A stretch of DNA of 62,350 bases, the filler included, from Deltaproteobacteria bacterium (lineage in GTDB: Bacteria > JAUYMQ01): assembly GCA_030698575.1 (NCBI GenBank). It is 12 parts of 12 records of this genome, joined end to end, with 100 filler letters (N's around TTAATTAATTAA, not from the genome) between each part and the next. Parts side by side here need not be neighbours in the genome. Positions count along the whole stretch, not along the records: positions 4,616 to 22,769 come from JAUYMQ010000645.1; 11 more parts are not named here. The stretch is one strand, 5' to 3'. The notes beneath the pieces were generated by a model. The model saw only the letters and a program-made list of their open reading frames with translations. It did not search any database and was not told the origin of the DNA. The position numbers and the translations under genes were made by a program. Below are positions 4,616-22,769 of this stretch, piece by piece; within the stretch, counting starts at the first letter, position 1; every line of letters starts with the position of its first letter.

Positions 4616-5357
4616 CGGCGGGCGGCGGCTCGGCGATGTGCTTCCCCACGATCTGCTGCGACGAGTCGCCGTCGAACGGCGGGGCGCCGGTCACCATCTG
4701 AAAGAGCACGGCGCCGAGTGAGTAGAGGTCCGAGCGGCGATCGAGGTTGGGGTCGCCGAGGGCCTGCTCGGGCGACATGTAGTGCGGCGTCCCGATCACC
4801 AGGCCCGTCTGCGTGAGGCCGGCGCCCGCCGCGCCGTCGAGCCGCCGCGCGATGCCAAAGTCCACGAGCAGCGGCCGGCCACGCGCGACGTCGAGCATGA
4901 TGTTGTCGGGCTTGATGTCGCGGTGCAGCAGCCCCGCCTTGTGCGCGTGATCGAGCGCGTCGAGGATCGGGATGATGATGGCGAGCGCACGCTCGGGCGG
5001 CAGCGCGCCCCCCCCTCCCCCGGAGCGCTTGAGCAGCTCGCCCAGCGACATCCCGTCCACGAACGGCATCGCGTAGTAGGCGAGCCCTTGGCCTTCGCCC
5101 ACGAAGTGGATCGGGAGGATGTTGGCGTGCTCGAGCCGGGCGGCGGCGCGCGTTTCGCGCTGAAAGCGCTCGATCATCCCGGCGGTCCAGGCGACGTCGG
5201 GCCGCAGGACTTTGACCGCCAGGCGGCGCTCCAGCTCCTTGTCCCAGACTTCGTAGACCTCGGCGAAGCCGCCCGAGCCGACGACGCGGCGGACTTCGTA
5301 CTTCTCGCCCAGGGCGGCGGCGAGGCGGGAGAGGGCGGGGGTATTGGGGTCGGACAT
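4616..5357 (-). CDS. Hanks-type Ser/Thr protein kinase, 3'-truncated
   Basis: [41 protein letters not shown]. Confidence 0.95.
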
Positions 5358-5413
5358 CGGCGCTACTATGGGGAGTTCACGCCGGCGAAGCAATCGGTCG
5401 TCGGGCCGCCCCT

Positions 5414-5929
5414 TCAGCGCGCCACCATCGCGATGGTCTCCCACGTGCGGGTCGTTTGCTCCTTGCCGAATGTCTTCTCGAGGAGTGTCATGAAGTCGGG
5501 GCCGTGCCGGGGGTTCGGGACGTAGACCGTGAACACCTCACTCCCTTTCATGGCGAGGATGCGAGCGTCCTCGAACGTGATCGGCAGCTTCAGCCGCGAT
5601 TTGTGGGGGTCGCGCAGGAACGTGACGATGCGCTTGGTGCCGGGCTTCAGGCGGAACCCACCGAACGGATCGGTGTCGAGGATTTTGCGCAGCGCGTCGA
5701 TGGAGCGCACGATCGTGAGGAACGTCTTGCCGAGGTGCTGCTGCATCGCGGCTTCGGCGGTGCGGGCGAGCGAGACGTCAGATCCTGGCTTGGCGCTGAA
5801 GACGACATTGCCGCTCGAGCGCACGGTCTTGACGTCGCCGAAGCCGGCCGATTCGAAGGCCTGTCGCAGCTCGGCCATCCTGGCGTTCATGGGCATCACG
5901 CCGCGGAGAAATGCCGCGTAACGTTTCAT
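5414..5929 (-). CDS. DUF1697 family protein
   Basis: N-terminal YAAFLRG, SGNVVF, C-terminal TTRTWET. Confidence 0.85.
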
Positions 5930-5988
5930 AGGTGCGGGAAAGGTACAGCAGCTAACGGATTCTTCGCGCCTGGCGCCCCCACTCCTCA

Positions 5989-6023
5989 GCAGATCCTTCG
6001 CGCCTGCGGGGCTCAGGATGACA
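5989..6023 (+). repeat. REP-like palindromic repeat, family A copy 1
   Basis: GCAGATCCTTCGCGCCTGCGGGGCTCAGGATGACA; 30/35 identical to 8698-8732; partial copy near 5957. Confidence 0.7.
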
Positions 6024-6044
6024 CGCTCGCTGCAGTGTATCCTC

Positions 6045-6644
6045 ATGAAAACTCTACTGCCATTCCTGGCATTCGTGCTCGCAGCGGGCTCGGGCGGCGC
6101 CCAGACGCCCGCTCGACGCAGCGGCGAACAGATCGATTCGTCGTTCAACGCGCACAAGGGCGAGTTCAACTACCTGCTCGGCGACTGGGAATTCAGGGCC
6201 ACGAGCATGCAGTGGGGTGAGTTCCGGGGGTACTGGAGCGCGGTGCAGCTCGACGAAGGGCAGATCCTGGATGAGTACCGGGTGGTAGGCGACAGCGGCG
6301 AGACCTACTACGTCACCACCACGCTGCGCAATTACAACGGCGCGGCGGACCGCTGGGAGCTGATCGGCGCCGACGCCGGACGGGGCCTCCTGGACTTCGG
6401 CACCGCCCGGAAGGTCGGGAGCGAGATGCACATCGAGCAGCGCTTCGGCGTGGCCGCCGGCGACTCGGCGCTGTCGCGGATACGCTATCACAACATCCAG
6501 CCGGACCGGTTCTCGTGGACTTTGGACCGCTCGGTGGACGGCGGCAAGACGTGGATCGTGGCCGCTCAGACCATCGAGGCTCGGCGCATCGGGCCCGCGC
6601 GGAGCATCGGCGCCCTGGCACCGGCGCGGAACAAGAAGCCATGA
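6045..6644 (+). CDS. Secreted hypothetical protein (DUF1579-like)
   Basis: Signal peptide; FNYLLGDW and SVDGGKTW motifs. Confidence 0.65.
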   Translation: MKTLLPFLAFVLAAGSGGAQTPARRSGEQIDSSFNAHKGEFNYLLGDWEFRATSMQWGEFRGYWSAVQLDEGQILDEYRVVGDSGETYYVTTTLRNYNGAADRWELIGADAGRGLLDFGTARKVGSEMHIEQRFGVAAGDSALSRIRYHNIQPDRFSWTLDRSVDGGKTWIVAAQTIEARRIGPARSIGALAPARNKKP

Positions 6645-6723
6645 GTTGCTCTCACGCTCGGGCCTAGGCTTTATCCGGGAGCAAGTCGACGGCACCCCCA
6701 AGCGCTTGCGCGGAATTCAATGG

Positions 6724-7755
6724 TTACGGACGACGGCCGCGCCCGCTCCCGCCCCCATCGCGCCGCCCGCCGCTCGACGGCCGCGCCGCCGGGCGCGATC
6801 CACCATTGCCGCCACGCGTCACACTCGGTCTGCCGCGCGGCGAACTGGGCCGCTCACGCGTTATGCTCGGCCGGTCGCGCGTGACGCGCGGCTTGCCGCG
6901 CGACGTGCCAGCGTCGCGCGTCCGAGGAGCGATGGTCGGGTTCGTCGTCGAGCCGCTGCGCTGACGGACTTCTGCCGGTGTATACCGCACGCGGTCGCGC
7001 GGAATCACGAAGCGCGAGCCACCGCCGCCCGTATGCCCGCCTCCCACAAACGTCGTGCCGAAGCGGCCGAAGCCGAACCCGAAGCGGGAGCGGTATCCGT
7101 AGTAGCAGCTCGCGCTCCAACCCCAGAAGGCATCGTAGCAGAACGGGTCATAGAACGGATCGTGGAAATACGACGATCGATACGGATAACCGAACGACAG
7201 GCCCAGACGGAACCGGTTGTGATAGCCATATCCGTATCCGTCGTGTCCGTAACGCCCGGCAATCTGGCGGCCGACCACGTAGCTGGCGGCGTCGTACTCG
7301 AAGCGCTGCTCGCCGCTCATCTGTCGCACGATGTCGAGCAGCCCCGCGAGCGGGTCCGCGCGCACCGTCCCGGCGCCGAGGGAGCGGTAGTCCCAGTGAT
7401 CGTTGCGGACGAAGCCATCGTAAGTGAAGGGATCGGCTGAGACGGCGGCGAGCACCGTACCCGCGCCGTCCGCGGCGTCCACGAAAATCGCGTCGCGATC
7501 CGAGCGGCCGCGCAGCTCCTGGCGCCGGCCGCCGCGCACGAAGGCATCGTCGGTGGGATCGAGCGGGAACAGGACGCGGACGCGGCCCTGAGGATCAGCG
7601 TGGAGAACGACGAGGAAGCCGTCCTGCGCGGTCTGGACGTAGACGCGGGCGCGATCGCCGCGAGAGAATTGCTCGTGATCGAGCCGGACCGTGATGGGGG
7701 CCGGGATGTCCTGAGCGACAGCGGGTGCAAGGGCGAGCAGCACAGCGAGCAGCAT
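6724..7755 (-). CDS. DUF4384-domain secreted protein with Tyr/Gly/Arg-rich tail
   Basis: GAGGAG RBS, signal peptide, GRVRVLFP motif. Confidence 0.7.
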   Translation of the reverse strand: MLLAVLLALAPAVAQDIPAPITVRLDHEQFSRGDRARVYVQTAQDGFLVVLHADPQGRVRVLFPLDPTDDAFVRGGRRQELRGRSDRDAIFVDAADGAGTVLAAVSADPFTYDGFVRNDHWDYRSLGAGTVRADPLAGLLDIVRQMSGEQRFEYDAASYVVGRQIAGRYGHDGYGYGYHNRFRLGLSFGYPYRSSYFHDPFYDPFCYDAFWGWSASCYYGYRSRFGFGFGRFGTTFVGGGHTGGGGSRFVIPRDRVRYTPAEVRQRSGSTTNPTIAPRTRDAGTSRGKPRVTRDRPSITRERPSSPRGRPSVTRGGNGGSRPAARPSSGGRRDGGGSGRGRRP

Positions 7756-7827
7756 GGGCGTCTCCTCGTGTCTTTCAATATACCCCAGGCTTGCGCCGAT
7801 GGATTTGCGTTCGCCGTCGCGGTGGAC

Positions 7828-8283
7828 CTAGCGCAACCGCCTGACCTCTTCGAGGGCTTCGATGTCCGCGGCGTCTTGCAGCCGTCCCGTGCGCTTGGTC
7901 TCGATGAGGTCGTCGATTCCAATCAGGGGAATCTTGACCCCGTCTACATCCACGGTACCTGCGTTGGGTGCCGCCTGCTCGTATTTGACCTTCCACGCGA
8001 CCGTGAACACGTCGACTCGCGGGTCGTCGCCGATGACCGTGATCGGACGCTTCAGGACCTCAGCTGCGGTCCACTCGCGGGCGAAGCCATAGCCAAGTGT
8101 CGTCAGTGCTTTAAGGACGCGCGCGGCGTTCGCTTCAGTGCGCTCGATCAGGATATCGATGTCTTCGGTCGCGCGCGCGTATCCATGCAGAATGCAGGCG
8201 ACACCTCCGATGACGAGGTATTTCGCCTTGCCGCGATTCAGCGCCGCGCAGACCGGTGTTATCCGCGATTGGCTCTTTTCCAT
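7828..8283 (-). CDS. Nucleotidyltransferase-fold protein (DUF6036-like), candidate TA component
   Basis: YLVIGGVA-x-HGYARATEDIDI; C-terminal K-x-TGR-x-D-x2-D. Confidence 0.8.
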   Translation of the reverse strand: MEKSQSRITPVCAALNRGKAKYLVIGGVACILHGYARATEDIDILIERTEANAARVLKALTTLGYGFAREWTAAEVLKRPITVIGDDPRVDVFTVAWKVKYEQAAPNAGTVDVDGVKIPLIGIDDLIETKRTGRLQDAADIEALEEVRRLR

Positions 8284-8624
8284 TCGTAGAAGTCCTCGTA
8301 GGAATCGAAGCCGATGATTTGCTGCACCGCGCCACGCCGCCGGCGCCGGCTCTGGGCGAGCCGCGACGTTGCCTCGGCCACTCGGAGCCGTTCGGCAGGC
8401 GAACGCGCGAGATCGCGCTCGAGCTGCTCGCGTCGAGCGACACCGACAGCGTCGGATCCGTAGGCGGGTTGTGGCGACTCGCGGACTGCGCTCGGACCTG
8501 TCAGGTATGCGCGCAGCGCATCGACAATCACCCGGCTGCGCGAGCGGTCGAGCTGCTTCGCGCGGCGGTCGGCAGCCGCGAGAACGCTTTTCGGCAGGGT
8601 AATGGCGATGCGAGCGTAGGCCAT
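8259..8624 (-). CDS. Ribbon-helix-helix (CopG-like) protein, candidate antitoxin
   Basis: RIAITLP...DRSRSRVIVDALRAYL; overlaps the downstream nucleotidyltransferase gene. Confidence 0.75.
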   Translation of the reverse strand: MAYARIAITLPKSVLAAADRRAKQLDRSRSRVIVDALRAYLTGPSAVRESPQPAYGSDAVGVARREQLERDLARSPAERLRVAEATSRLAQSRRRRRGAVQQIIGFDSYEDFYEWKRANRG

Positions 8625-8697
8625 GGGCGTACCTAGTATTACTGGGTATGAGTAAAATACTTCAGGGGAGGGAAAGAGAGAAGGGGGGTGGTCAAAA

Positions 8698-8732
8698 GCA
8701 GATCGGTCGCGCCTGTGGCGCTCGGGATGACA
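8698..8732 (+). repeat. REP-like palindromic repeat, family A copy 2
   Basis: GCAGATCGGTCGCGCCTGTGGCGCTCGGGATGACA. Confidence 0.65.
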
Positions 8733-8871
8733 GCCCGCTGGGCGCATGTAAAGCAAGAAGAAGCGTGGTTGGTTGGGTCCGTGCGCTGAAGCGCCGGCTC
8801 GGCTACTGCGCACGCCCTGAAGGGCGTCGATTGCCACCGCGCGCGTCCTCATTGTCAGCGCGCGTTGTCCT

Positions 8872-9270
8872 CGATCCAGCTCGAGTGTCCTCCGATCCCC
8901 CTAACGCACACTTCGATCAGTCGCGCGCGGACCGCGACCTGGCTGCAGCGCATCCCGATCGAACGTACGGGCGTGGCGATCGATTGTGCGCCCACCGCGA
9001 CCCGACTCGCGCCGACTCGGGCCGACCGAAGGCGGATCCCGACCGAGCTGCAGAGCCTGCCGATGAGACTTTCGTGGACCCCGATCGAGTGCGCGGGCGT
9101 GCCGAGCGGTTTTCACCGCATCCCGATCGATCGCGAGCGAACGTCGATCGCACTCGAGCGCACTGCGATCGGGCGAGCGCGGGCTCCGTGTCGAAATGCG
9201 TGGACAGCGATCGTGGCGCGGGGCTTTGCGTTTCAGCGAGCGCGCGTTGCGCGGCTCGCGCAGTGTCTCC
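8872..9270. repeat. Degenerate tandem array of 19 units with an exact 21-nt period
   Basis: CG at unit positions 1-2 in 18/19 units (mostly CGAT/CGAC), G at position 14 in 18/19, no indels. Confidence 0.85.
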
Positions 9271-9395
9271 GCCCGAGGACAACGGCGAGTGGACGTGAGC
9301 ACGAATCCGCGTGGCCCGATTTATCCAAAGCTGCACGTGGCGTCGGAGAGGATGGTCGTCACCTATGGCTCCTCTCTGTTCCGGAGAGGGTCGTC

Positions 9396-9437
9396 CTCAC
9401 CCCCGGGCCCCCTCTCCGTTCCGGAGAGGGGGAACTC
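9396..9437 (+). repeat. 42-nt palindromic repeat, family B copy 1 (partial copy at 9371-9390)
   Basis: CTCACCCCCGGGCCCCCTCTCCGTTCCGGAGAGGGGGAACTC; 38/42 identical to 13854-13895. Confidence 0.85.
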
Positions 9438-9448
9438 AAGGAGGGGTT

Positions 9449-10132
9449 ATGAACGCCCTATTACGCAGGCGGCTGGAGATGGCCGCGCGGGTCCGCGATT
9501 TTATGCGGGCCCACAAGACGGACGCCGTTGGTGAGGGACTCGGGCTCGCGAAGTTCGAGGAGCTGATCCAGCGCGCGGAGGTACTGGTGGCGCAGCAGCG
9601 CGGTGGCGTCGTGGTGACGCGAGCGGCCACCCAGCAGCGCGCCAAGCTTCGTCGAGCGCTGCAGAGCAAGCTGCTGCTCTATCTGCGCGCGGTTGGCGCG
9701 GTGGCGGCGAAGGAGAACGCGGAGTTGGCGGTGCAGTTCCAGCTGCCGCCCACGAACGCCAGCCACCAGGCGTTGCTCACCGTGGCGCGCGGGATGCTGG
9801 AGAAGGCGACCGCGCAGAAGGAGCTGCTGGTGAGCCGCGGCATGTCCCCGACGTTGCTCGATGCTCTCGCGGGCGCGTTGGGGGAGTTCGAGAAGACGCT
9901 GGAGGCTTCGCGCGAAGGCCGGCGCAATCATGTAGGTGCAAGCGCCGATCTCAAGGCCGTGGCGGCCGAGATCAAAGAGCAGGTCCGCGTGCTCGATGGG
10001 CTCGTGCGGTTCCGGTTTGGGGAGAACGCGGAGCTGATGGGGGCGTGGGCCAGTGCCCGCAACGTGCTGGGTCCGTTCAAATCCAAGGGCGGACCGGAGG
10101 CGGGCGGTGGTGAAGCGCCGAAGGCGGCGTGA
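9449..10132 (+). CDS. Hypothetical all-alpha-helical protein (227 aa)
   Basis: Strong AAGGAGG RBS before ATG 9449; GC3-biased codons; amphipathic helical pattern. Confidence 0.85.
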   Translation: MNALLRRRLEMAARVRDFMRAHKTDAVGEGLGLAKFEELIQRAEVLVAQQRGGVVVTRAATQQRAKLRRALQSKLLLYLRAVGAVAAKENAELAVQFQLPPTNASHQALLTVARGMLEKATAQKELLVSRGMSPTLLDALAGALGEFEKTLEASREGRRNHVGASADLKAVAAEIKEQVRVLDGLVRFRFGENAELMGAWASARNVLGPFKSKGGPEAGGGEAPKAA

Positions 10133-10277
10133 AGGCGGCGCCGAAGCCTGGGCCCAGGCGGCGAGGCGCGGTGGGTGGATGATCGCCTGCCGCGCGTTGT
10201 GCTTGTGCGGCTTAGACTTGGCTAACGCCCTCGTGGGCAATTCGATGCCCATTGAGGGTAACATTGTATTGACGCTG

Positions 10278-10862
10278 ATGATGAAAACCGAGACATTGCA
10301 GCCGATGCCCCTCCGCTATCGAGAGGACAGGGCGACCCAAGCCGCGGCCAGGTTGCTGCGCCTGCGGGGCGGTACCATGTCCTACCTTAAGTTGATGAAA
10401 CTCTTGTATTTCGCCGATCGGCGGGCCTTGGCAGAGCTAGGCAGGCCCATCAGCTACGACATGTACGTCTCCATGCCCCAAGGGCCGGTGCTCAGTCGCA
10501 CGCTGGACCTCATGACGGAAGAGCCAGAGCCCCATGCTGACCAGCTCTCGTATTGGCGCTCTTTTATTTCGGAGCCACACGACTGGGAAGTCAGTCTGCT
10601 GCGTGCCGAGATTCCAAACGACCAATTGTCGCGCGCCGAGGAAGAGATCCTGGATCGTGTCTTTGAGAAGTACGGGCGATTGTCGCGTTGGGAAATTCGC
10701 GATCTCTCGCACAAGCTTCCCGAGTGGCACGATCCGCACGGATCATGTGTGCCGATCAGCATTAAGGAAATTCTTCTGCACCAAGGCATGAGCGAGGAGG
10801 ATGCTCAAGCGGTCGTCGAGGCCCTGGGCGCGGAAAGCTATGCGGACCAGCTAGCGAGTTGA
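10278..10862 (+). CDS. Panacea (DUF4065, GepA/SocA-like) antitoxin
   Basis: LKLMKLLYFADR, MPQGPV and LSHKLPEW motifs. Confidence 0.85.
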   Translation: MMKTETLQPMPLRYREDRATQAAARLLRLRGGTMSYLKLMKLLYFADRRALAELGRPISYDMYVSMPQGPVLSRTLDLMTEEPEPHADQLSYWRSFISEPHDWEVSLLRAEIPNDQLSRAEEEILDRVFEKYGRLSRWEIRDLSHKLPEWHDPHGSCVPISIKEILLHQGMSEEDAQAVVEALGAESYADQLAS

Positions 10863-10878
10863 TCGGACTCTTTGTCCG

Positions 10879-11289
10879 ATGGAGTTCTTCAAGGCCGGAA
10901 GCGCCATTATCCTTTCAGGCTATCCGGTTGGCTCTCCTCACCTGTGGTTCGTTTTGACGGATCCTGATTCCGAATCCGATCAGGTTGTGGCCGTTATGGT
11001 CGTGACGGTACGCGGGCACACCGATAGAACAGTGACTCTATCCGCTGGCGACCATCCATTTATCAGGCATGATTCGTCGCTCGACTTCGGCGGTACGAAG
11101 CGCTTTCAGACGGCTCGACTCAACGCCGCCTTGCGCAGCGGTCGGTGTGAACTTTCCGAGAACATGACTGCGGCATTGTTGGGAAAGGTCCGGGCCGGGC
11201 TCTTAGCATCGCCCCGAACGCCCCATCACATTATCGATTACTGTCGCGACCGTTTTCCGAAGGACTTCACCCCTGAAGGACAGGCGTAG
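10879..11289 (+). CDS. Hypothetical protein, probable toxin partner of Panacea (possibly PemK/MazF-like)
   Basis: Starts 16 nt after the Panacea gene; HLWFVLT and GDHPFIRHDS motifs. Confidence 0.55.
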   Translation: MEFFKAGSAIILSGYPVGSPHLWFVLTDPDSESDQVVAVMVVTVRGHTDRTVTLSAGDHPFIRHDSSLDFGGTKRFQTARLNAALRSGRCELSENMTAALLGKVRAGLLASPRTPHHIIDYCRDRFPKDFTPEGQA

Positions 11290-14200
11290 TTTCGAGCTCC
11301 CGTGCGTAGTACCGCAGGCGACAGTACAGGTTGAACAGCTCCATCTCCTCCACGCTGTTCGGCCTCGTCCGGACCAGCTTCGACGACGCGACTACGATGG
11401 CCAAGCACCGCGCTCGCGACAACGTCACGTTCAGGCGGTTGGGATTGAGCAAGAACGCGGGACCCCGTGCTGTCTCCTCGAGCGATGAGGCGCACATGGA
11501 GACGATCACGACGGTGGCTTCCTGGCCCTGGAACTTGTCGACCGACGCGATACGGATCTTGGGATCGTTCATCCGTTCCTTAAGACAGCGCACCTGGGCG
11601 TTGTAGGGTGCCACAATCAGCAGATCTTTTGCGACATCGAAACCGTGCTCCTTCCCATCGTCCTCGCGCACGGTGGCCCGGCGCAGGTCCGCGACGTACT
11701 CGGCGATCCGATTGGCCTCCTCCGCGCTCGACTGGGTGTTTCCCTCGTGCTCGATCTCGTCGAGGATGATCCCGGTGCCGCGTGAAAGCACGTGCGCATC
11801 GGGTGGTAGCTTGATGCAACGCCTCGCGGTATTCGGACTGGGATGCAGCCGCCCTTCGTAGGCCGTATCCGAAATGAACCGGCAGATGTCGGGATGCAGG
11901 CGCCACGTGTCCGGCAGCAACACGCCCATGTCCGGCGGCACGGTGGCGTGCCCTTCCAGGAGATAGTGCAGGCATGACCAACCGCTGCGACCCGGATGCA
12001 CGGCCTGGGCAGGCTGGGAGAGCTGCATCTGGTCGCCGATCAGCACGATGTTCTTGGCCGACAGGCCCATCGCGACGGCGTTGGCGAGGCAGACCTGGCC
12101 TGCTTCATCGATGAAGAGATAATCGAAGCACTGATCCAGTTCCGGCCGAGCGAACAGCCACGCGGAGCCGCCCACGACGATACCGTCAGCGAGGAGACCA
12201 GAGACCTCCTTAGTGTCACACTGACTGATCCGCCGTTCGGGATCGTCGGCAGCGTCGTCTTCACCACCGGCTTTGTAGATCGCCAGCGGTTTCGCCAAGG
12301 TCCGCGATGCGTTGCTGACGTCGGTCAGGAGATTGTTGATCGCCTTGTGGCTGTTCGATGCGACGCCAATGCGCTTGCCGCCGCTCGCCAACGCCACGAT
12401 CACGGCCGCCGCGTTGTAGGTCTTGCCGGCACCGGGCGGCCCTTGAATGCAGAGCGTCGTGCGGTCGAGCCCGCGAATCAAGTCTATGAGATCGCCTGGG
12501 AATGTTGCCGCGTCCGGCAGCAACGCCCCGCCGGCTCTGTCGGTCAGCCTGGGCGTGCGGCGATGCAGGAGGTCGTCTACAGCGCGATACGCGTCGCGGT
12601 CACCGCTCGCCCAGTGTTCACCAAATCGGGTGACGGCCTCTCGCAGCGGGTCGGACGGGACGTGTTCGTTCGGAATGATGTGACAGAGATCGGGGATGGT
12701 GCGCTTGGGTCCGAACTTGATGGTGAGCCGTCCGGTATCGAGATCCAATGACTCGATCTTGTGCTTCTCGACCTCGCTCCCGAACAGCAGGTAGACGCGG
12801 TCGCCCGCCTCGACTTTGGTATCCTGATCGGGATTGAACGCGTACTCCACAAGCTGCGATTTCTTGACCGGGACGGGGGGCGTCTCCGTGCGCGTCACGT
12901 ACGCGATGCAATCGGCATCATCGTACAAATCCTCCGGCGGAGACTCGAGCCGATCGAAATACCGCCACCACATCGGCTTGTCCTCGCGCCGGTGGTAGCC
13001 GAGGAGCCACGCCACCAGGCGAGTGACGTCGTCCTGGGCATTCGAAAGCATCGCCTCGGCCAGCTCGTCCTCGGGCCGTGGCTCATCCGGTTGCTCCGCC
13101 TCCGGCGGAGGCTGCGGGATATAGACGATGCCCGCTTCGCGTTGCCGCTCGCGCAGCCACGTGGCGAGATGCCAGGTATTCTCGCAGTCCTCGCGGTTGT
13201 AATCGCGGATGGCCTTGAGGATCGGTGATGCACGCCAGTCGGGTGGCTCGCCGCTGGCAAGCCAGTTGTTGTATTCGACGACGGAGCTGGCCGCGCTGGT
13301 GACGAGGGCCGTGCGCGCGGGCGAGAAGAGCACCTCGATGTCCTTGAGCGAGTAGCCCCTCGTCCCGATCGCGACGCCGTTCTTGGTGACGGCGTAGAGA
13401 TCCACGAACACATCGCCGCGCAGCAGGTCATCCACCGCGTTCTCGCGGGTCGCGTACTTCCCCATGAGTCGCTGCAGCGCCGCCACTTCGTAATTGGCGT
13501 AGTGGTAGACGTGCATGTTCGGATCTGTGCGCAGCCGCTCGTGGATCCAGTCCACGGTCCGCTCGAAGGCCGCCTTTTCCTGCTCCGCGTCGTGCGCCCA
13601 TTCGTCCTTGAAGAGGGGCTTTCCGTCTTCGACCGTGATCGCGCCGAACAAATACTCGAGGCCGCTCTCGGCGAGGGGGTTGCCTTCGAGATCGAAGAAG
13701 ACATCGCCGGGGGAAGCGGGCGGCAGCATGGCGAGCCCGATGCGTTTGCCGGTCTCGTGGGGCAGGGGCTCGAACGTGGGCTTCGCTTTGCCGCGAGACT
13801 CCATTTGGAGCCGGGCCTGGCGTCGCAGCCGCGCGAGGACGTCGTCCGAGATTCTCACCCCCTGGCCCCCTCTCCCTTTGGGAGAGGGGGAACTCGAGGC
13901 GAGCGCCGTCATGGTCGCGATACCGGCGGCGCGCAGGCGTTTGATCTGGCTGCGGGTGATGCGGGCGACGAGACGCAGGTCGTCGCGCTCTTCTAGGGTC
14001 TTTTGAGCCGCGGTCTCCCATCGCCCCCAGCTCCGCTCGAGGGCGGGGTCGGGCTGCGCGCCGGGATCGAAGGCTTCCTGGATTTCGAGGAAGGTGTCCC
14101 GCAGGTGGCGATAGAAGTAAAAGGAGCGGTCGGTCTCGAACCAGCGTTCTTCACCCGTGCCGAGGACGAAGCCAAGCTGCGGCGGGCGAGTGTCCTGGAG

Positions 14201-14677
14201 TGCTTCGAGGTACTCGGCGTAGGCGCAGAGCTGGATCAGGAAGTAGGGCTTGGCCGAGCGGGCGAGCTTTGAGTCGAGCGGCCGGTAGGACCAGGGGCCG
14301 AGGCGGCTCGGCGTTTCGGTGCGGACCAGGAAGTCGGGGTAGCCGTGCCAGACGCCGTGGTCGAGGCGGCCCTGGTAGATGAGCCTCTTCCCGGTCTGGA
14401 GCGCGGCGAGCGTGTTGGCGCCATCCTTCTCGTGCTCGAAGCGGACCGCGGGGCCGTGCTGGAGTTCGAGCTTGGCGAGGACGGCGGCCTCGTGCTGCAT
14501 TCCCTTATCTCGGACCAGGGCCATCTCGGGGTCGGCGTCGTCAGGGGAAGGGAAGCTCGGGTCTTTGCGTCCGCGCTCGGCGTAGGCGCGTTCCATCCAG
14601 GCGGCGAACTCACCGGAGAGGAAGGTGATGAGGTCGGAGGGGGAGAATTGGAGCGAGTGGCCAGCCGAATGTCTCAT
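11267..14677 (-). CDS. TM0106-family RecB-like nuclease with RNase H-like and SF1 (Upf1/DNA2-like) helicase domains
   Basis: GYPDFL/DSKLA (PD-D/ExK), FFDLEG, QGPPGAGKT, IDEAGQ, IGDQMQL, SVDKFQGQE, NRLNVTLSRA. Confidence 0.92.
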   Translation of the reverse strand: MRHSAGHSLQFSPSDLITFLSGEFAAWMERAYAERGRKDPSFPSPDDADPEMALVRDKGMQHEAAVLAKLELQHGPAVRFEHEKDGANTLAALQTGKRLIYQGRLDHGVWHGYPDFLVRTETPSRLGPWSYRPLDSKLARSAKPYFLIQLCAYAEYLEALQDTRPPQLGFVLGTGEERWFETDRSFYFYRHLRDTFLEIQEAFDPGAQPDPALERSWGRWETAAQKTLEERDDLRLVARITRSQIKRLRAAGIATMTALASSSPSPKGRGGQGVRISDDVLARLRRQARLQMESRGKAKPTFEPLPHETGKRIGLAMLPPASPGDVFFDLEGNPLAESGLEYLFGAITVEDGKPLFKDEWAHDAEQEKAAFERTVDWIHERLRTDPNMHVYHYANYEVAALQRLMGKYATRENAVDDLLRGDVFVDLYAVTKNGVAIGTRGYSLKDIEVLFSPARTALVTSAASSVVEYNNWLASGEPPDWRASPILKAIRDYNREDCENTWHLATWLRERQREAGIVYIPQPPPEAEQPDEPRPEDELAEAMLSNAQDDVTRLVAWLLGYHRREDKPMWWRYFDRLESPPEDLYDDADCIAYVTRTETPPVPVKKSQLVEYAFNPDQDTKVEAGDRVYLLFGSEVEKHKIESLDLDTGRLTIKFGPKRTIPDLCHIIPNEHVPSDPLREAVTRFGEHWASGDRDAYRAVDDLLHRRTPRLTDRAGGALLPDAATFPGDLIDLIRGLDRTTLCIQGPPGAGKTYNAAAVIVALASGGKRIGVASNSHKAINNLLTDVSNASRTLAKPLAIYKAGGEDDAADDPERRISQCDTKEVSGLLADGIVVGGSAWLFARPELDQCFDYLFIDEAGQVCLANAVAMGLSAKNIVLIGDQMQLSQPAQAVHPGRSGWSCLHYLLEGHATVPPDMGVLLPDTWRLHPDICRFISDTAYEGRLHPSPNTARRCIKLPPDAHVLSRGTGIILDEIEHEGNTQSSAEEANRIAEYVADLRRATVREDDGKEHGFDVAKDLLIVAPYNAQVRCLKERMNDPKIRIASVDKFQGQEATVVIVSMCASSLEETARGPAFLLNPNRLNVTLSRARCLAIVVASSKLVRTRPNSVEEMELFNLYCRLRYYARELETTPVLQG
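13854..13895 (+). repeat. 42-nt palindromic repeat, family B copy 2, in frame inside the TM0106 gene
   Basis: Read on the minus strand as part of SSSPSPKGRGGQGVR. Confidence 0.85.
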
Positions 14678-14742
14678 GGATCAGGCAACGTATGGCGGGG
14701 GTGGGACAGGGTATAGGAGGCCAGCGGCAGAGCAGCAACGTG

Positions 14743-15285
14743 TCACATCGGCGACCACCCCAGTGCTTCTTCAATCTTCCGACGATATTGCGTGTCGATC
14801 TGGCGCGGGGCTCGTCGAATGTAGCGCTCGGCGACGTATCGCCGCTGGCCGGTAAGGGGCGTCAAATATTCAATGATCTGACCCACGGATGGTGAGGCTA
14901 TTTCGTCTAGTTTGGGTCCGAGGGCCGTCCAAATCACGGCATCAACGCTGTGAGCCTTCGTCCACGTTGGCAGATCAGGAATTTCACCTGGCCCCTCGTC
15001 CCCGGTCTGCCAAACCCCAACGTCCTTCTCCCAGTTCTTGCTCGTGAGCCGCTCGCGACGGCGGAGCGCCTCCTTCGCTGGCTGAATCGTGCTTGGCAGC
15101 ATGAGAGCCCAGAGGACACGAACTTGCGCGGCTGACGTATCGATTACGAGAGTGATACTGCCGTCCGATGACTTGCGCTTGAACTCAATGGGCGCTAGTG
15201 GCCCGACAGGGAACCACTCACTTCGCAGGGGGAGGTCGCGTGGATCCCACACAAGCGAGCCCCAACCGAGACAGGCGATGTCCAT
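14743..15285 (-). CDS. Hypothetical protein with GGCT/ChaC-like N-terminal motif
   Basis: IACLGWGSLVWD resembles the FGYGSLIW motif of gamma-glutamylcyclotransferase-fold proteins. Confidence 0.55.
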   Translation of the reverse strand: MDIACLGWGSLVWDPRDLPLRSEWFPVGPLAPIEFKRKSSDGSITLVIDTSAAQVRVLWALMLPSTIQPAKEALRRRERLTSKNWEKDVGVWQTGDEGPGEIPDLPTWTKAHSVDAVIWTALGPKLDEIASPSVGQIIEYLTPLTGQRRYVAERYIRRAPRQIDTQYRRKIEEALGWSPM

Positions 15286-15314
15286 TTCGTGCTAGCGAAC
15301 GGTTTCTGCACGGG

Positions 15315-16181
15315 TCAGCACTGAGACGCTCGGAATTCGGACCACGTCAGAACCCGTGTCATGGCATAGCGACCGTCCAGGACTGCTCGCGCTGCCCGAC
15401 GAAGGGGGCGGTCCTCAGTCACAAGGAGGGCCTTGCGACCACTAGACAGATACAACAGTTGGAGAAGATCTGCATGCTGAACGCGTTTGGGTTGTTCAGC
15501 TACAACCGTTCGCTCAAATACGGCGATTCCTTCAAGCTCTATGAGAAGACGCCACACCGGATGTACGAGAAGTGCTTCGACAGGGGCATCTCCCTGAAGT
15601 CCTAGCTTCGTCCAAATGCCGCGAAGAAAGTCATCTTGCTGTAGCGCCTTGGTCCATTGACCATCCAAGAATTCTGCTGCCGAACCCCATCTGTCCGCTC
15701 CTGATTGCCTCTTCAAGAACCCTCGAATAACGGGCCGTGCTCTCCGGTGCATTGCGTCGAACCGCTCTTCGAGGTCTTGGCGAAACTTCGCGGCCGCGCG
15801 TCGAACCTCTTCGCTCACGTTGCCTGGGTGTTCGAGCATCGGTTCGAGCCCAGAGCGACCACTCCAGAAGCCGGGTTGGCCTTGAACAATTGCCTGTCCA
15901 GCCTTCCTCAGTATGTGCTCAGGGAGCGGTAATAAGCCCTTTTCGCCGGCAAGGGCTGAGAGGATGGTTAGGGCGCGGCGTCGGATGTCAGGATTTTGGT
16001 TACTCGCTATCTCGATTGCGTTGATAGCAGTCGGCCATATCTCAAAGTCCACGGCGGCGAGGCTCCGCGTGATCATCGCCCGTTCGGATCGATCCTCTAG
16101 GAACTTCAGGCAGTTTGTATCGAATACAACGATGCCAGAGGGTTGGTTCGATGCGCGCACGTGCCACGGGCTCTTCATCAC
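15315..16181 (-). CDS. PIN-like domain protein with large internal insertion
   Basis: VVFDTN, AIEI, HADLL and LLVTEDR: four PIN-type acidic positions spread over 288 aa. Confidence 0.65.
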   Translation of the reverse strand: MMKSPWHVRASNQPSGIVVFDTNCLKFLEDRSERAMITRSLAAVDFEIWPTAINAIEIASNQNPDIRRRALTILSALAGEKGLLPLPEHILRKAGQAIVQGQPGFWSGRSGLEPMLEHPGNVSEEVRRAAAKFRQDLEERFDAMHRRARPVIRGFLKRQSGADRWGSAAEFLDGQWTKALQQDDFLRGIWTKLGLQGDAPVEALLVHPVWRLLIELEGIAVFERTVVAEQPKRVQHADLLQLLYLSSGRKALLVTEDRPLRRAARAVLDGRYAMTRVLTWSEFRASQC

Positions 16182-16185
16182 GCCG

Positions 16186-16620
16186 CTACGCTTTTTGCTT
16201 TCTTCGAGTCCCAGTCTGCGCCTTGAGATTGAATGGGCTGAGCCACACGGGACCGAATCGCCCCCGACCAGTGATGTTGGCGATCGCCTCTCGAATGAAT
16301 GGAAAGACCAGAGTCCAGCCGGCCAATGAGACGTAGTTATCGAGGGGCATGTTCGGAGCGGTCTGCTCGCGCTCCAGGAGCGCAGTCATCGTCACGTCGA
16401 ACTCGTAGACAGCCTCCGTTTTTGGCTTTGTTCGTACTCTAGTCCGAATCAATGCAGCGGAGCCGTCGCTCGTGAGTCCAGTTTCGAGAGCTACAAGGAG
16501 CTCTCGAACATCCGCAGGCTTTTCGGCGGGAAGGTCTAAGAACCCTGGTCGGTGCTTGAACGTCGCTTTCTCCAAGAAAACTTGGACTAGGCGAATCCCA
16601 GGCTGTTTCGTCTCATCCAT
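16186..16620 (-). CDS. SecB-like chaperone of a TAC system
   Basis: LVFPFIREAIANITGRGRFGPVWLSPFN SecB signature; TGATG overlap with the antitoxin stop. Confidence 0.85.
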   Translation of the reverse strand: MDETKQPGIRLVQVFLEKATFKHRPGFLDLPAEKPADVRELLVALETGLTSDGSAALIRTRVRTKPKTEAVYEFDVTMTALLEREQTAPNMPLDNYVSLAGWTLVFPFIREAIANITGRGRFGPVWLSPFNLKAQTGTRRKQKA

Positions 16621-17285
16621 CAAGCCACCTCAATTGCACAATCATCAGGCGCAGAACCTGTGCTCCGTTTGGTTCCGGAGTGCGCGGTTGATGTCGTCTT
16701 GCCAGATGTCGACTTAGCAATCAAACGAAACCGTCCATACTGCTTGCGTCGCACCGAGGCACCAACGTGCACAACCATCGTAAAAATCTTTGACGACGAT
16801 TTCGAAAAATCGTGAATCAAAGACTGCCGGACTTCAGTGCCGGCGCCTTCCGAACGATGAACGGCCTCCACGCCGTTCCGCCGCGCGACGGCTTCAAAGA
16901 CTCCCGGGAAGTCCCGTGCGATGAGCAGCAGATTGTCAACAGCTTTGCTCTGGCACACACTTCCGCGTTCCCACCGCACGACTGTCTTCGCTCCAAGCCC
17001 CAATGCCTTCTCAAGCTGCGCTTGCGAAAGACCGTACGCTGCCCGGATTTCTCTGATCTCCAGGGGCGACAGGAGACCGGCATGAGTGCGAAGGACCGCT
17101 GCTCGCGCCCGGCTCGAGGCAAGGGACTGTTCGGGGGTGTAGAATGCCTCGCCACACGTCGAGCACGTGGTAAGCTCGTCTTCGTAGTTCAGGACACCAC
17201 CGTCAGGCGCGCGGACACTTTGAGCAGTCCGCGTCGGCACGAGCGTCGCTTGTTTACAGCTAGGGCACACAGGGAAACCAGTCAT
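16620..17285 (-). CDS. mqsA: MqsA-family antitoxin (Zn finger + XRE HTH) with ~80-aa ChAD-like C-terminal extension
   Basis: CPSC...CSTCGE; EIRAAYGLSQAQLEKALGLGAKTVVRWERG; polar low-complexity tail. Confidence 0.88.
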   Translation of the reverse strand: MTGFPVCPSCKQATLVPTRTAQSVRAPDGGVLNYEDELTTCSTCGEAFYTPEQSLASSRARAAVLRTHAGLLSPLEIREIRAAYGLSQAQLEKALGLGAKTVVRWERGSVCQSKAVDNLLLIARDFPGVFEAVARRNGVEAVHRSEGAGTEVRQSLIHDFSKSSSKIFTMVVHVGASVRRKQYGRFRLIAKSTSGKTTSTAHSGTKRSTGSAPDDCAIEVA

Positions 17286-17298
17286 GGGATCGCTCTGA

Positions 17299-17622
17299 TC
17301 ACTTCGAACTCTTGAATGACAGCACCTTGAGATCGTGGTCCTTGGGCAGGCGGATTGACACTTTCACGTAGAGTAACCTCTCCTGATAGCGTTTTCGGAA
17401 TACGTAAACCTCCTTACCTGGAATAGTCTCGTCCGGTTCTTCCTCACGAATCTCACCCACCGTGAGACTGCACAAACACTCGAGAACATCCTCAGCATCC
17501 AGGTCCAAATCGCCTAACGACGACTGCACTCTCGCTTCGATTCTCACCTGCCGCGCGTGTGCCAACATCCGAATCAGACGGACAGCTTCCACCCGGCGCG
17601 CATCCGCCCCGGCGTCACTCAT
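17299..17622 (-). CDS. mqsR: MqsR/RelE-superfamily mRNA interferase toxin
   Basis: 107 aa directly upstream of mqsA; LYVKV and VLSFK motifs. Confidence 0.75.
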   Translation of the reverse strand: MSDAGADARRVEAVRLIRMLAHARQVRIEARVQSSLGDLDLDAEDVLECLCSLTVGEIREEEPDETIPGKEVYVFRKRYQERLLYVKVSIRLPKDHDLKVLSFKSSK

Positions 17623-17645
17623 CGGACGCGCAGTGTAACGGGAAC

Positions 17646-17662
17646 GGTATCAGGGTGCTACC
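17646..17662. promoter_or_regulatory. Candidate antitoxin operator (7-3-7 imperfect palindrome)
   Basis: GGTATCA-GGG-TGCTACC about 24 nt upstream of the toxin start. Confidence 0.5.
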
Positions 17663-17810
17663 ATAGCCGCAAGACTTAAACCACGGTACAAACACGGCTG
17701 TCGCTCCTTACCTGCTCTGGCCAGCTGCGCTTAGATGGCTCGGACGCTCAAGGTGTAGCACCATCATAGCGTATTGTCAACTGTACGCCGGCAAGTTTGC
17801 CGGCGGGGAC

Positions 17811-17838
17811 TTGACATACCTGCGACACCGGATAGCAT
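17811..17838 (+). promoter_or_regulatory. Candidate sigma70 promoter for the BREX operon
   Basis: TTGACA-N16-TAGCAT; an opposite-strand TTGACA at 17780-17775 may drive the TAC operon. Confidence 0.45.
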
Positions 17839-17902
17839 TCCAGCGCGACCGGGACATGCCCTTGACCGTCGGACGGAAACGCCGAGCCGGAGACTTGGAA
17901 CG

Positions 17903-18709
17903 GTGACCAGCTACCAGTTCGCTTGGCCTGGACCTAGCCCTCATTGGCGGGAGGAAGACGCCCAACAGGTGGGGCTCAAGTTCGGCGACAAGGGCACGCA
18001 CACGAGCCGTACGATGATGCTCGAGGAGCTCGCGACGGTATTGTCCGCGGTCCCCGAGCTCGGCACACGAGAGGATTACGAACATGCGATCGTTTCCGAC
18101 AACTGCCTCGGCAAACCCACCGGCTCCACACGTCGGCTGAGCCGCCAACGTCTCGCCGAGCTTTACGCCCTCGATCCGACGGTTCCTCTCTTTAGGGTGC
18201 TGCGGCGACTCTGGCGGGTCGAGGATTCAGGACGACCCCTGCTTGCCCTCTTGTCCGCCATGGCGCGCGATCCATTACTCCGCGCCACAGCGCCCTCGGT
18301 GCTGTCCCTCACGGAGGGTGAGGAGTTCCGGCGAGTCGGAGTACGAGACACTCTCCGTGAGGCGGTGGGAGATCGACTCAATGACAGCACCCTCGACAAG
18401 GTCGTCCGCAACGCCGCGAGTTCATGGAGTCAAGCGGGGCACCTGAGCGGGCGCACGTTCAAGGTCCGTCGGCGTGTGCACCCAACACCTGCGACCGTCG
18501 CATACGCGCTCTATCTTGGCGTCAAGACCGGATTCAGCGGAATCGACTTGTTCACGAGCGGTTGGATAGCATCGCTTGACGCGGACCCATCGACGGCGCG
18601 CGAGGTCGCGTTGACTGCCAAACGACTCGGACTCATCGACCTTCGCTTGTCCGATGACATTTTCCAATTGAACGTCGACCGCCTGGACCCTTGGGCGGGG
18701 AAGGCTTGA
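17903..18709 (+). CDS. brxA: BrxA-like protein (start uncertain)
   Basis: First gene before brxB/brxC; GTHTSRTMMLEEL and SSWSQAGHL motifs. Confidence 0.6.
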   Translation: MTSYQFAWPGPSPHWREEDAQQVGLKFGDKGTHTSRTMMLEELATVLSAVPELGTREDYEHAIVSDNCLGKPTGSTRRLSRQRLAELYALDPTVPLFRVLRRLWRVEDSGRPLLALLSAMARDPLLRATAPSVLSLTEGEEFRRVGVRDTLREAVGDRLNDSTLDKVVRNAASSWSQAGHLSGRTFKVRRRVHPTPATVAYALYLGVKTGFSGIDLFTSGWIASLDADPSTAREVALTAKRLGLIDLRLSDDIFQLNVDRLDPWAGKA

Positions 18710-18712
18710 ATA

Positions 18713-19276
18713 ATGGGCCGCATTGAGGATCTCGCAGAGCGATACGGGCGGGATATCGCGACGCCCTGGCAACGCACCGTCGCCGGTGCGCAGCGGGTCG
18801 TCATGGTGGTATACGACAAGGATCTGGAGCGCACGCTCCGCGCCCGGCGGCAAGCGTTCGAGCTTGAGACGCAAAAGGCCTTGCACGACTGGTTCGAGGT
18901 GGACGTTACAGATGCATTCGGCCGCTGGATGGCGTCCAGCGAATACCGCGAGGCGTACTTCGAGTCTCCGGAAGATCTCGAGCTCAAACTCGAGGCCGAG
19001 TTCGCCGAAGTCGTTGCCGAACGGATTCGAGCCACGCTCGCTCGTCCCGACGTCACGGCGAATTCTGTGGTCGCGGTGCTCGGCGTTGGATCGCTATACG
19101 GGCTAACGCGCGTGTCGAAAGTGCTGAAGCTGGTGGAGGGAGATATCAAGGGACGGCTGGTCGTCTTTTTTCCCGGCCAGTACGAGCAGAACAACTATCG
19201 CCTGCTGGATGCGCGGGATGGATGGAACTACATGGCAGTGCCGATCAGTCTGCACGGCACAGGAGAAACGCAATGA
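18713..19276 (+). CDS. brxB: BREX protein BrxB (DUF1788)
   Basis: GVGSLYG, GRLVVFFPG and YRLLDARDGWNY; ATGA overlap with brxC. Confidence 0.85.
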   Translation: MGRIEDLAERYGRDIATPWQRTVAGAQRVVMVVYDKDLERTLRARRQAFELETQKALHDWFEVDVTDAFGRWMASSEYREAYFESPEDLELKLEAEFAEVVAERIRATLARPDVTANSVVAVLGVGSLYGLTRVSKVLKLVEGDIKGRLVVFFPGQYEQNNYRLLDARDGWNYMAVPISLHGTGETQ

Positions 19277-22737: not shown

Positions 22738-22749
22738 GGTAAGCGACGG

Positions 22750-22769
22750 ATGCCCACATTAGCGAAGGA
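22750..22769 (+). CDS. Start of next BREX gene (probably pglX), cut by contig end
   Basis: GAGGT RBS then MPTLAK; identity inferred from position only. Confidence 0.35.

Follow-up and report, generated by a model that had tools for sequence, protein, structure and literature searches.

A phase-locked 21-nt repeat tract in register with the sigma-54-type control region of a helical-protein gene family

The window analyzed here is a stretch of 62,350 nucleotides (filler included) of the assembly GCA_030698575.1 (Deltaproteobacteria bacterium, JAUYMQ01). It is a chain of several contigs with runs of N between them, in which positions 4616-22769 represent contig C85. On this contig, a run of 21-nt units at 8872-9270 precedes the gene of an uncharacterized helical protein; loci, genomes, and contigs are designated by L, G, and C numbers, the window's genome being G000. 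The 21-nt repeat is a real, non-coding, phase-locked tract. It is in register with the dyad site of the gene family to which the downstream gene belongs, and both its position and its evolution link it to the sigma-54-type control region of that family. With regard to its origin and role, the explanation that we favor, with somewhat less than even confidence, is that the array is a non-coding element that arose by tandem duplication of an activator-site unit and was kept as a helical-phase-preserving, probably curved, extension of the sigma-54 enhancer region.

No indels are needed to lay out 8872-9270 in rows of 21 nt. Column 1 is C in 18 of the 19 rows, column 2 is G in all of them, column 3 is A in 15, and column 14 is G in 18, so that the 19 indel-free units of the sequence-only reading, 15 of them starting with CGA, were recovered position by position. 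Quadruplets of CGA at 21-nt spacing occur nine times in the 62-kb window, eight times within the array; a mean of 0.07 was obtained in dinucleotide-preserving shuffles, none of 100 of which reached nine. The lag-21 identity of the array is 0.49 over 378 nt, compared with a local-maximum average of 0.32 ± 0.03 throughout the genome (4.13 Mb, 65 % GC), and the array ranks third among the regions of the genome by this measure. All other strong lag-21 regions, and the sole ones of comparable or greater strength, are coding heptad repeats (C71:9536-9720, C69:1-800, C179:10100-11200, and C154:21870-22000), among which a TPEQVQS-like perfect tandem, Gly-rich repeat proteins, and a PGYGNPP-like tail were seen. 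No further CGATC-phased array was found in the genome of the window, and BLASTN against this genome revealed no second copy of the array. As Tandem Repeats Finder (TRF) returned only short pieces, the array is not a simple variable-number tandem repeat. A CRISPR was rejected as well: the 21-nt units are contiguous, with no alternation of repeat and spacer, and no cas family was present among the scanned neighbors. Both exclusions had already been made from the sequence. The extent proposed at that time, 8872-9270, was right as to the periodicity, not as to its limits. The register begins before 8872, with half-sites at 8844, 8866, and 8886, while the last four "units" (9187-9270) are part of a more conserved leader with two dyad sites; the mean pairwise difference between orthologues is 0.12 in this part and 0.25 in 8872-9186. 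The array boundaries given here are defined by a threshold.

Four reading frames had been reported to be open, and indeed two frames on the plus strand (8648..9298 and 8865..9452) and two on the minus strand (8901..9302 and 8917..9336) span all or most of the array. None of their translations matched a Pfam family. Among 20 related arrays, stops were present in all six frames in seven (L016, L018, L020, L026, L027, L033, and L041), and none of the frames stays consistently open. Substitution was followed in seven orthologous arrays, 77-85 % identical to that of the window. The mean pairwise difference by coordinate modulo 3 was 0.236/0.257/0.235 (permutation p=0.75), as compared to 0.053/0.036/0.132 by codon position in the adjacent helical-protein gene of the same sequences. 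The most conserved bases of the array sit at mixed codon positions whichever frame is chosen, and the array changes about twice as fast (0.25) as the third positions of the gene (0.13). The stops in all frames of seven arrays, together with the lack of 3-periodic substitution, show that the array is non-coding.

The sequence-only reading had proposed to look for a 21-nt autocorrelation peak in the flanks of homologues, and such a peak was found. In the region from -800 to -100 before the gene, the top autocorrelation lag (of 1-70) was 21, 42, or 63 in 26 of 30 loci, whereas the same lags came out on top in 5/25, 3/26, 2/26, and 7/29 control regions of equal size. In another set, drawn from whole genomes and sharing some of its loci with the first, the figure was 28 of 31 loci, including 16 of 17 distant homologues (E 1e-45 to 1e-57). 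As many loci are related, these counts overstate independence. The sequences of the units are unrelated from locus to locus: BLASTN of relatives against the window returned only the gene, pieces resembling repetitive extragenic palindromes (REP-like), and parts of the leader. Even the seven paralogues of one genome have mutually unrelated unit sequences, with the promoter-proximal dyad in six of the seven. Because the neighboring genes otherwise vary among loci (Uma2, aspartyl protease, hybrid kinases, integrase, RHS), the array, the leader, and the gene constitute the co-moving unit. Of the two-part system that had been suggested, the link between array and gene stands; the array is, though, better viewed as the distal part of the sigma-54-type upstream control region of the gene than as a separate partner.

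The order of the elements in this region was read from 30 aligned leaders. The inverted repeat TGTCCTC-N4-GAGGACA follows directly after the array and is succeeded by a box GAGCACGAATC, a -24/-12 element (for example TGGCCCGATTATCGCA in L027 and TGGCACGACCGTCGCA in L173), the 5' untranslated region (5'UTR) with the motifs CGTCGGGAG and GGCACGG..CCCGACG..CCGTGCC, the sequence GGAGG, and the ATG start codon. The consensus of sigma-54 promoters is given as TGGCAC-N5-7-TTGCT in PMC12316311. A strict sigma-54 pattern, TGGNN[CA][GA]N4[TA]NGC, was met in 31 of 52 loci at -89 to -170, with TGGCACGACCGTCGC (L173) and TGGCACACCGGTCGC (L184) as examples, while 0.054 per locus is expected from its density elsewhere in the same loci. 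The 18-bp dyad TGTCC-N8-GGACA was found, with at most two mismatches, in 37 of the 52 loci, and in the subfamily of the window it lies approximately 30-45 bp upstream of the -24/-12 element. The box GAGCACGAATC, at 9297-9308 in the window and at the aligned sites of some 20 loci, is located 4-5 nt before the -24 element and could be an extended promoter contact or a site for a second factor.

The genome specifies rpoN (PF04552, one match, 212 bits) and has 24 matches to PF00158, the AAA+ domain of sigma-54 activators, 16 of which score above 160 bits (at least 16 full-length), although these counts may stem from another organism than that of C85 if the contig is mis-binned or transferred. Perfect dyads number 12, 5, and 5 in three genomes and 2, 0, and 2 in the reversed control; six of the 12 in G163 are placed directly upstream of members of the helical family. 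A loose search for GTCCTC...GAGGAC in the window's genome was uninformative (294 matches, mostly coding). The -24/-12 elements, the presence of rpoN and AAA+ activator genes, and the dyad-symmetric upstream site, to which a protein presumably binds, indicate at the level of sequence that the gene family has a sigma-54-type promoter region. In G163, a perfect dyad also occurs 49 nt before a consensus TGGCAC-N5-TTGC element (L189:2217-2280, on C106) that has no array and that precedes an unrelated gene for a protein of 224 amino acids (aa) with a signal-peptide-like N-terminus. For this reason, the dyad and the sigma-54 element look like a regulon signature, to which the array would be an addition specific to the helical-protein gene family. 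This hints at a wider regulon under one activator.

The array is in register with the dyad site. When exact upstream TGTCC sequences are placed relative to the proximal dyad, 33 of 68 fall in phase class 0 (16) or 20 (17) of 21. In the window, the distance from the distal half-site at 8886 to the proximal dyad at 9264 is exactly 378 nt, or 18 x 21 nt. The distal half-sites form a pair, TGTCCTC-N13-TGTCCTC, the proximal member of which is located 357, 378, 399, or 420 nt (17-20 units) from the dyad. The pair was found in approximately 16 of 57 dyad-bearing loci (72 loci were examined), several of which are close relatives, so that these counts are not independent. It has been retained in loci in which the inner arrays can no longer be aligned (L014, L024, L031, L038, and L039). 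The similarity between orthologues has its left end around 8837. Dyads duplicated at a distance of 21-22 nt are present in L040, L173, L177, and L178, and the length of a unit equals that of the 18-bp dyad plus 3 bp. A purine-rich tract precedes the distal half-sites by 15-25 nt in relatives and by about 155 nt, including a REP-like element, in the window.

The clean unit-sized differences in length between orthologues amount to 21 nt in L072, L074, and L075 and to 210 nt, or 10 units, in L077. L071 also lacks 21 nt of the leader (around 9280-9300). In the alignment, as read by eye, two single-base shifts are offset over some 20 nt, and a third, in L071, stays uncompensated. Some arrays are near-homogeneous, such as that of L043, with a lag-21 identity of 0.72, and those of L026 and L027, with 63-nt superunits, while the array type of the window is old and degenerate yet in phase, its units being about 45-50 % alike. 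The indel-to-substitution ratios that are commonly quoted lead one to expect many indels in unconstrained DNA at such divergence. Since units that are only about 45-50 % alike would then imply many indels, their conserved phase points, by these ratios, to selection on the register or to frequent re-homogenization.

A universal unit motif was not found: circular alignment of the unit profiles gave a weak meta-consensus, and 4-mers are enriched only modestly (1.85-fold at most). In 8-10 of 36 arrays, the consensus unit has an excess of GATC or CGATC. The likeness of the units to a half-site exceeds that of shuffles in 9 of 35 arrays, where about 1.75 are expected. This fits units that were born as half-site-bearing copies and later decayed, and does not imply that the inner units are bound. 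Curvature was predicted with a wedge model using approximate dinucleotide parameters. In 19 of 32 loci, the 147-bp segment with the strongest curvature in the whole locus falls in the array zone (rough chance expectation about 0.13), and in 26 of 32 the array zone contains a segment below the 5th percentile of the remainder of the locus (rough chance expectation about 0.2). The predicted curvature is modest, with an end-to-end ratio of 0.75-0.95.

Taken as an enhancer extension, the array would function as double-stranded DNA and would make up the far end of the control region that lies upstream of the 227-aa gene and belongs to its sigma-54-type promoter. Its 21-bp unit, two helical turns in length and sized as the 18-bp dyad plus 3 bp, may have arisen by tandem duplication of a site-bearing unit. 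In the subfamily of the window, the array would reach from the TGTCCTC half-sites at its distal end (8844-8892) up to the proximal dyads (9189 and 9264), the inner units having largely lost the half-site and evolving fast with retention of the register. In this way, distal and proximal sites would face the same side of the helix, and small bends contributed by the periodic sequence would add up in phase. Most probably, an enhancer-binding activator at both would then assemble or loop more easily, with the output being set for each paralogue. Binding of an activator, looping, and any effect on transcription are inferred. The tract would be maintained because its register, and perhaps its curvature, aligns distal and proximal activator sites along the helix in a way that permits cooperative assembly or looping. 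Of the three options in the sequence-only reading, a phased protein-binding track came closest, the better description being a distal sigma-54-type control region.

Several observations weigh against this explanation. The -12 sequence in the window is TCC instead of TGC, as it is throughout its subfamily, and the in-phase distal TGTCC pair is confined to the roughly 16 of 57 dyad loci, many of them related. TGTCC is enriched in none of 36 unit consensuses at p<0.05; half-site likeness is significant in just the 9 of 35 arrays, with p=0.92 for the window. Within the unit, orthologues differ least at columns 1-3 (CGA; 0.08-0.14), but this phase dependence is only marginal (p=0.044). The curvature follows almost automatically from a 21-bp period, and it also depends on the approximate wedge parameters. 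The dyad promoter of L189 has no array and thus, from anatomy alone, the array appears dispensable for the basic mechanism. Finally, no activator gene was present in the fetched flanks of 161 loci (562 kb).

The main rival, unlikely on balance but to be taken seriously, is that the array is a selectively neutral minisatellite. A promoter-adjacent 21-bp unit prone to duplication or unequal exchange would in that case have left the array as a decaying by-product, its period having been inherited and not selected. The near-homogeneous arrays of L043, L026, and L027, which suggest recent amplification, the change of unit number in whole units, the evolution of arrays at about twice the rate of third codon positions, the absence of a motif common to arrays, and the existence of a dyad promoter that lacks one are all in keeping with this. 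A neutral by-product is, however, less easy to reconcile with a tract that is kept family-wide, as far as the distant homologues, and that has a similar length of 17-20 units in diverged loci. Moreover, degenerate arrays hold the register without net indels, single-base shifts are offset, and the distal half-sites stay while the inner units decay.

A bolder variant of the enhancer explanation, considered distinctly unlikely, is that of a sequence-agnostic, phase-locked scaffold or "extended enhancer". The activator or the helical protein would nucleate at the distal TGTCCTC sites and assemble along one face of a curved 21-bp lattice to the proximal dyad. The number and the decay of units would set a private expression level for each of the up to nine or more paralogues of a genome, with the turnover of units serving as an evolutionary tuning knob.

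Improbable, too, is that the array is a track to which the product of the neighboring gene binds. In such a true two-part system, the helical protein would spread or polymerize along the DNA, contacting the same face once every two turns, either to regulate its own gene or to build a structural nucleoprotein complex. The helical-protein gene is the sole constant companion of the array, its product is a helical bundle of elongated shape whose N-terminal helix is rich in Arg, and the period of the array equals two turns of B-DNA. On the other hand, no DNA-binding domain or fold relative was found for the protein. Because proteins that are 60-90 % identical go with unrelated arrays, including those of paralogues in one genome, sequence-specific recognition by the helical protein is disfavored. 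Membership of the array in the promoter region explains its co-occurrence with the gene equally well.

An element acting at the RNA level is very unlikely. Transcription of the array, within a long leader or as an RNA of its own, would in that case yield repeats that are bound by a protein or base-pair with each other. In its favor stand the self-complementarity of CGAUCG and the over-representation of GATC or CGATC in 8-10 of 36 unit consensuses. Gene sequence of relatives is present among assembled metatranscriptome contigs, and two contigs of one library match the start of a close relative's array, aligning to 8819-8939 with its first units, although they may be carried-over DNA and show no strand, ends, or transcription; parts that the contigs leave uncovered are uninformative. 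The conserved -24/-12 element is situated downstream of the array, which should exclude the array from the transcript of the gene. The RNA array proposed earlier also found no support in folding or in Rfam. The folding energy of the array is ordinary relative to shuffles (z of -1.09 and -0.77 for the two strands), and Rfam 15 on 8500-9600 gave a best match of 23.3 bits, against a gathering score of 45, on a REP-like element and not on the array. The purine/pyrimidine bias of the units varies by locus (on inspection, with no formal count), and no significance of a 21-nt spacing for RNA helices is known.

The remaining readings are contradicted by the data. That the array encodes a hypervariable heptad-repeat peptide (21 nt being seven codons) is almost certainly wrong. 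The window array is open in four frames, the plus-strand open reading frame (ORF) 8865..9452 ends in ATGA overlapping the start of the gene, the ORF 8648..9298 is in the frame of the gene with a single TGA between them, and every other strong lag-21 region of the genome is a coding heptad repeat. Against this stand the stops in all six frames of seven of 20 arrays, the flat substitution modulo 3 with no excess at third positions, the mixed codon positions of the best-conserved bases, the existence of compensated single-base shifts, and the four translations without a Pfam family. The sharing of a frame between the "PDR" frame 8648..9298 and the helical-protein gene, divided by the TGA at 9296-9298, is judged a coincidence, as the N-terminus of the protein is conserved from M1, a strong Shine-Dalgarno sequence precedes its gene, and the two are separated by a REP insert. 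Equally improbable is a set of replication-origin iterons or a plasmid centromere bound by the neighboring ribbon-helix-helix protein. The units of about 21-22 bp with same-face spacing are iteron-like, and the ribbon-helix-helix gene (8259-8624, minus strand) adjoins the array; the genomic context speaks against it, since this neighbor is not kept at other loci, the modules lie in contigs of 0.3-1.8 Mb with up to nine or more matches per genome, the protein is unmatched in 72,556 plasmid and 50,697 phage records, and no adjacent Rep, ParA, or ParB family was found.

The protein that accompanies the array was correctly described in advance as uncharacterized and helical: it has no family in Pfam, NCBIfam, or PADLOC, and AlphaFold2 predicts a bundle made up of helices alone, two of them some 55 residues long (pLDDT 82). 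Foldseek against the PDB gave no matches at E<=0.001. In an exhaustive VIA-align search the best Z was 10.5, for the McpS sensor domain, in a range common among helical bundles; PspA (4whe_A; Z 7.8, rmsd 7.6) was one of many generic helical bundles and its Pfam family (PF04012) was not matched. The ESM Atlas gave only unnamed Gemmatimonadota clusters. The 902 homologues with 70-93 % identity to the protein are mostly on short contigs, and 1875 cluster representatives of the family were obtained at E<=0.001. Longer members that look like fusions have no additional Pfam domain.

All of the 48 genome loci that were found belong to metagenome-assembled genomes (MAGs) of Gemmatimonadota/Gemmatimonadales or to unclassified or differently labeled MAGs. 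Of 301 genomes sampled from Gemmatimonadota, 53 carry the family (52 of 300 without the unpublished G119), with up to nine listed matches per genome. The GTDB phylum of the window's genome comprises three genomes. Since its two relatives lack the helical-protein gene and all homologues, as well as the REP-like elements, sit in Gemmatimonadota or in unclassified or otherwise labeled MAGs, contig C85 may have been mis-binned or transferred. Contigs C288, C176, and C376 share the REP-like elements of C85, and mis-binning or horizontal acquisition is possible for these as well. C288 (L013) carries fragments of paralogues at 6800-6925, 8842-9063, and 11860-12024 (62-68 % identity, two with an internal TAG), surrounded by genes for a chemoreceptor, a HEPN/MNT-like pair, a DUF5131-like protein, an S8 peptidase, and an IS110 transposase.

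The features of the window around the array are collected in Table 1. The palindromes said to bracket the array are real; they are copies of unrelated, dispersed REP-like elements and not tied to it. Two kinds of these elements are dispersed in the genome (8778-8827 and 9392-9435 in the window, and on C288, C176, C376, C308, and C231), several further copies of each of the two window elements being present elsewhere in it. Elements of the second kind begin with GGTCCTCACCCC, a sequence that includes GTCCTC, the core of the regulator half-site, and are often located right after C-terminal fragments of the helical-protein gene. Relatives exist both with and without the REP-like insert in the 5'UTR.

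Table 1 Features in and around the 21-nt array (positions in the window)
Feature	Position	Strand	Remarks
Purine-rich tract (GGGGAGGGAAAGAGAGAAGGGGGG-like)	8664..8688		From sequence; comparable tracts before the distal pair in L014, L075, L076, L079, and L081
Dispersed REP-like palindrome	8778..8827		BLASTN copies on C176, C288, and C376, also in L015, L021, L051, and L054; outside the array
Distal half-sites	8844..8892	+	CGTCCTC 8844-8850, TGTCCTC 8866-8872, TGTCCTC 8886-8892; from sequence
Array core	8872..9186		15 units, CGATC(G) at unit starts; non-coding, fast-evolving
Second dyad-like site	9189..9206		TGTCG-N8-GGACA, at -260; kept in L014, L164, and orthologues
Promoter-proximal dyad	9264..9281		TGTCT-N8-GGACA; family consensus TGTCCTC-N4-GAGGACA; candidate activator site (upstream activating sequence, UAS) in array register
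Conserved box GAGCACGAATCC	9297..9308	+	Directly before the -24 element; 30-leader alignment, pattern matches
Sigma-54-type -24/-12 element TGGCCCGATTTATCC	9312..9326	+	-24 GG present, -12 TCC instead of TGC; loose pattern only
REP-like palindromes in the 5'UTR	9366..9435		Replace the CGTCGGG / GGCACGG...CCGTGCC motif of relatives
Shine-Dalgarno sequence AAGGAGG	9438..9444	+	From sequence; GGAGG before ATG kept in the alignment
Helical-protein gene	9449..10132	+	227 aa, all-helical, uncharacterized family found in Gemmatimonadota

In most 5'UTRs of the family (L014-L106, e.g. L027:2920-3003), a candidate H-type pseudoknot, CGUCGGG ... GGCACGG-N2-CCCGACG-CCGUGCC, can be drawn. Pairing was seen in 91 % of cells, compared to 27-42 % when the partners were slid; covariation is thin, with double changes in only six cells, which belong to three pairs. 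The pseudoknot is not present in the window, in which 9366-9435 is the REP-like insert.

Upstream of the array and divergent from it, 7828-8624 (minus strand) specifies two proteins that together resemble a toxin-antitoxin pair: first one of the ribbon-helix-helix type (RHH_1, E 2.7e-4), then a small one with weak likeness to nucleotidyltransferases (DUF6036/AbiEii-like). Downstream of the helical-protein gene, a SocA/Panacea-domain antitoxin (E 3.8e-24) and an unassigned 136-aa partner are encoded at 10275-11289 (plus strand) and a 1136-aa nuclease-helicase with PADLOC matches of the MkoA/MkoC type (E 4e-42) at 11267-14677 (minus strand). The setting at 10275-14677 looks like a defense island.

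Such arrays were not described in the literature covered by a full-text search, which does not show that none exists, and within that scope no described bacterial control region resembles the array. The closest relatives are sigma-54 promoters with a UAS, such as those for NtrC at glnAp2, for NifA (TGT-N10-ACA), and for PspF at pspA. With these are shared the TGGCAC-N5-TTGC -24/-12 element, a dyad some tens to about 130 bp upstream, the presence of rpoN and many activator genes, and, we would count, helical-phase-dependent action from a distance. Known sigma-54 enhancers have 1-5 sites within about 50-150 bp, whereas here 10-25 phase-locked 21-bp units extend over 200-500 bp beyond the dyad, their sequence is not conserved, and an activator is not encoded nearby. 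Distal operator and loop systems (AraC at O2-I1, OmpR at the F4 site of ompF, DeoR, and GalR) similarly have a distal copy of a regulator site hundreds of bp upstream, at integral helical turns. The intervening DNA is in those cases ordinary unique sequence and not a tandem array of site-sized units, and looping in the present case is only a conjecture.

The array has the unit length, same-face phasing, and direct repeats in common with plasmid iterons, which are 17-22-bp direct repeats on one helical face, present in 3-9 well-conserved copies with an adjacent Rep. It differs from them in having up to about 25 degenerate units, in lying on contigs of chromosomal size with several to many matches per genome, and in lacking a Rep. 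Tandem repeats upstream of a gene, with a copy number that varies between strains and that could tune the expression of a multigene family, are also a property of contingency loci. There, the units (TAAA at nadA, 7-bp repeats at hmw) measure 1-7 bp and are identical and suited to slippage, while the present units of 21 bp are often about 50 % alike and constrained in helical register. Intrinsically curved upstream DNA, finally, can modulate transcription or substitute for IHF, and its helical-repeat periodicity, giving bends in phase, and its position before a promoter are likewise found here. Classical curved DNA consists of AT-rich A-tracts at a spacing of about 10.5 bp; the arrays have 57-74 % GC, a 21-bp period, and modest predicted curvature.

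Sigma-54 promoters are the bacterial model of enhancer-dependent transcription, and their known enhancers consist of a few discrete sites. The tract described here, 200-500 bp long, combines a strict two-turn register over long evolutionary distances with a turnover faster than that of synonymous sites, and it is tied to an uncharacterized family with 1875 representatives. Should it prove to be a neutral minisatellite, it would still be a useful marker, and it would account for assembly breaks at these loci. For a poorly studied phylum, the analysis provides handles in the form of a candidate regulon motif (the dyad with the -24/-12 element) and a candidate 5'UTR pseudoknot. If the tract is functional, it would show that selection on a long cis-element of bacteria can act on nothing more than helical phase and DNA shape, and these loci would offer a natural system in which to study the rules of helix-face placement and looping.

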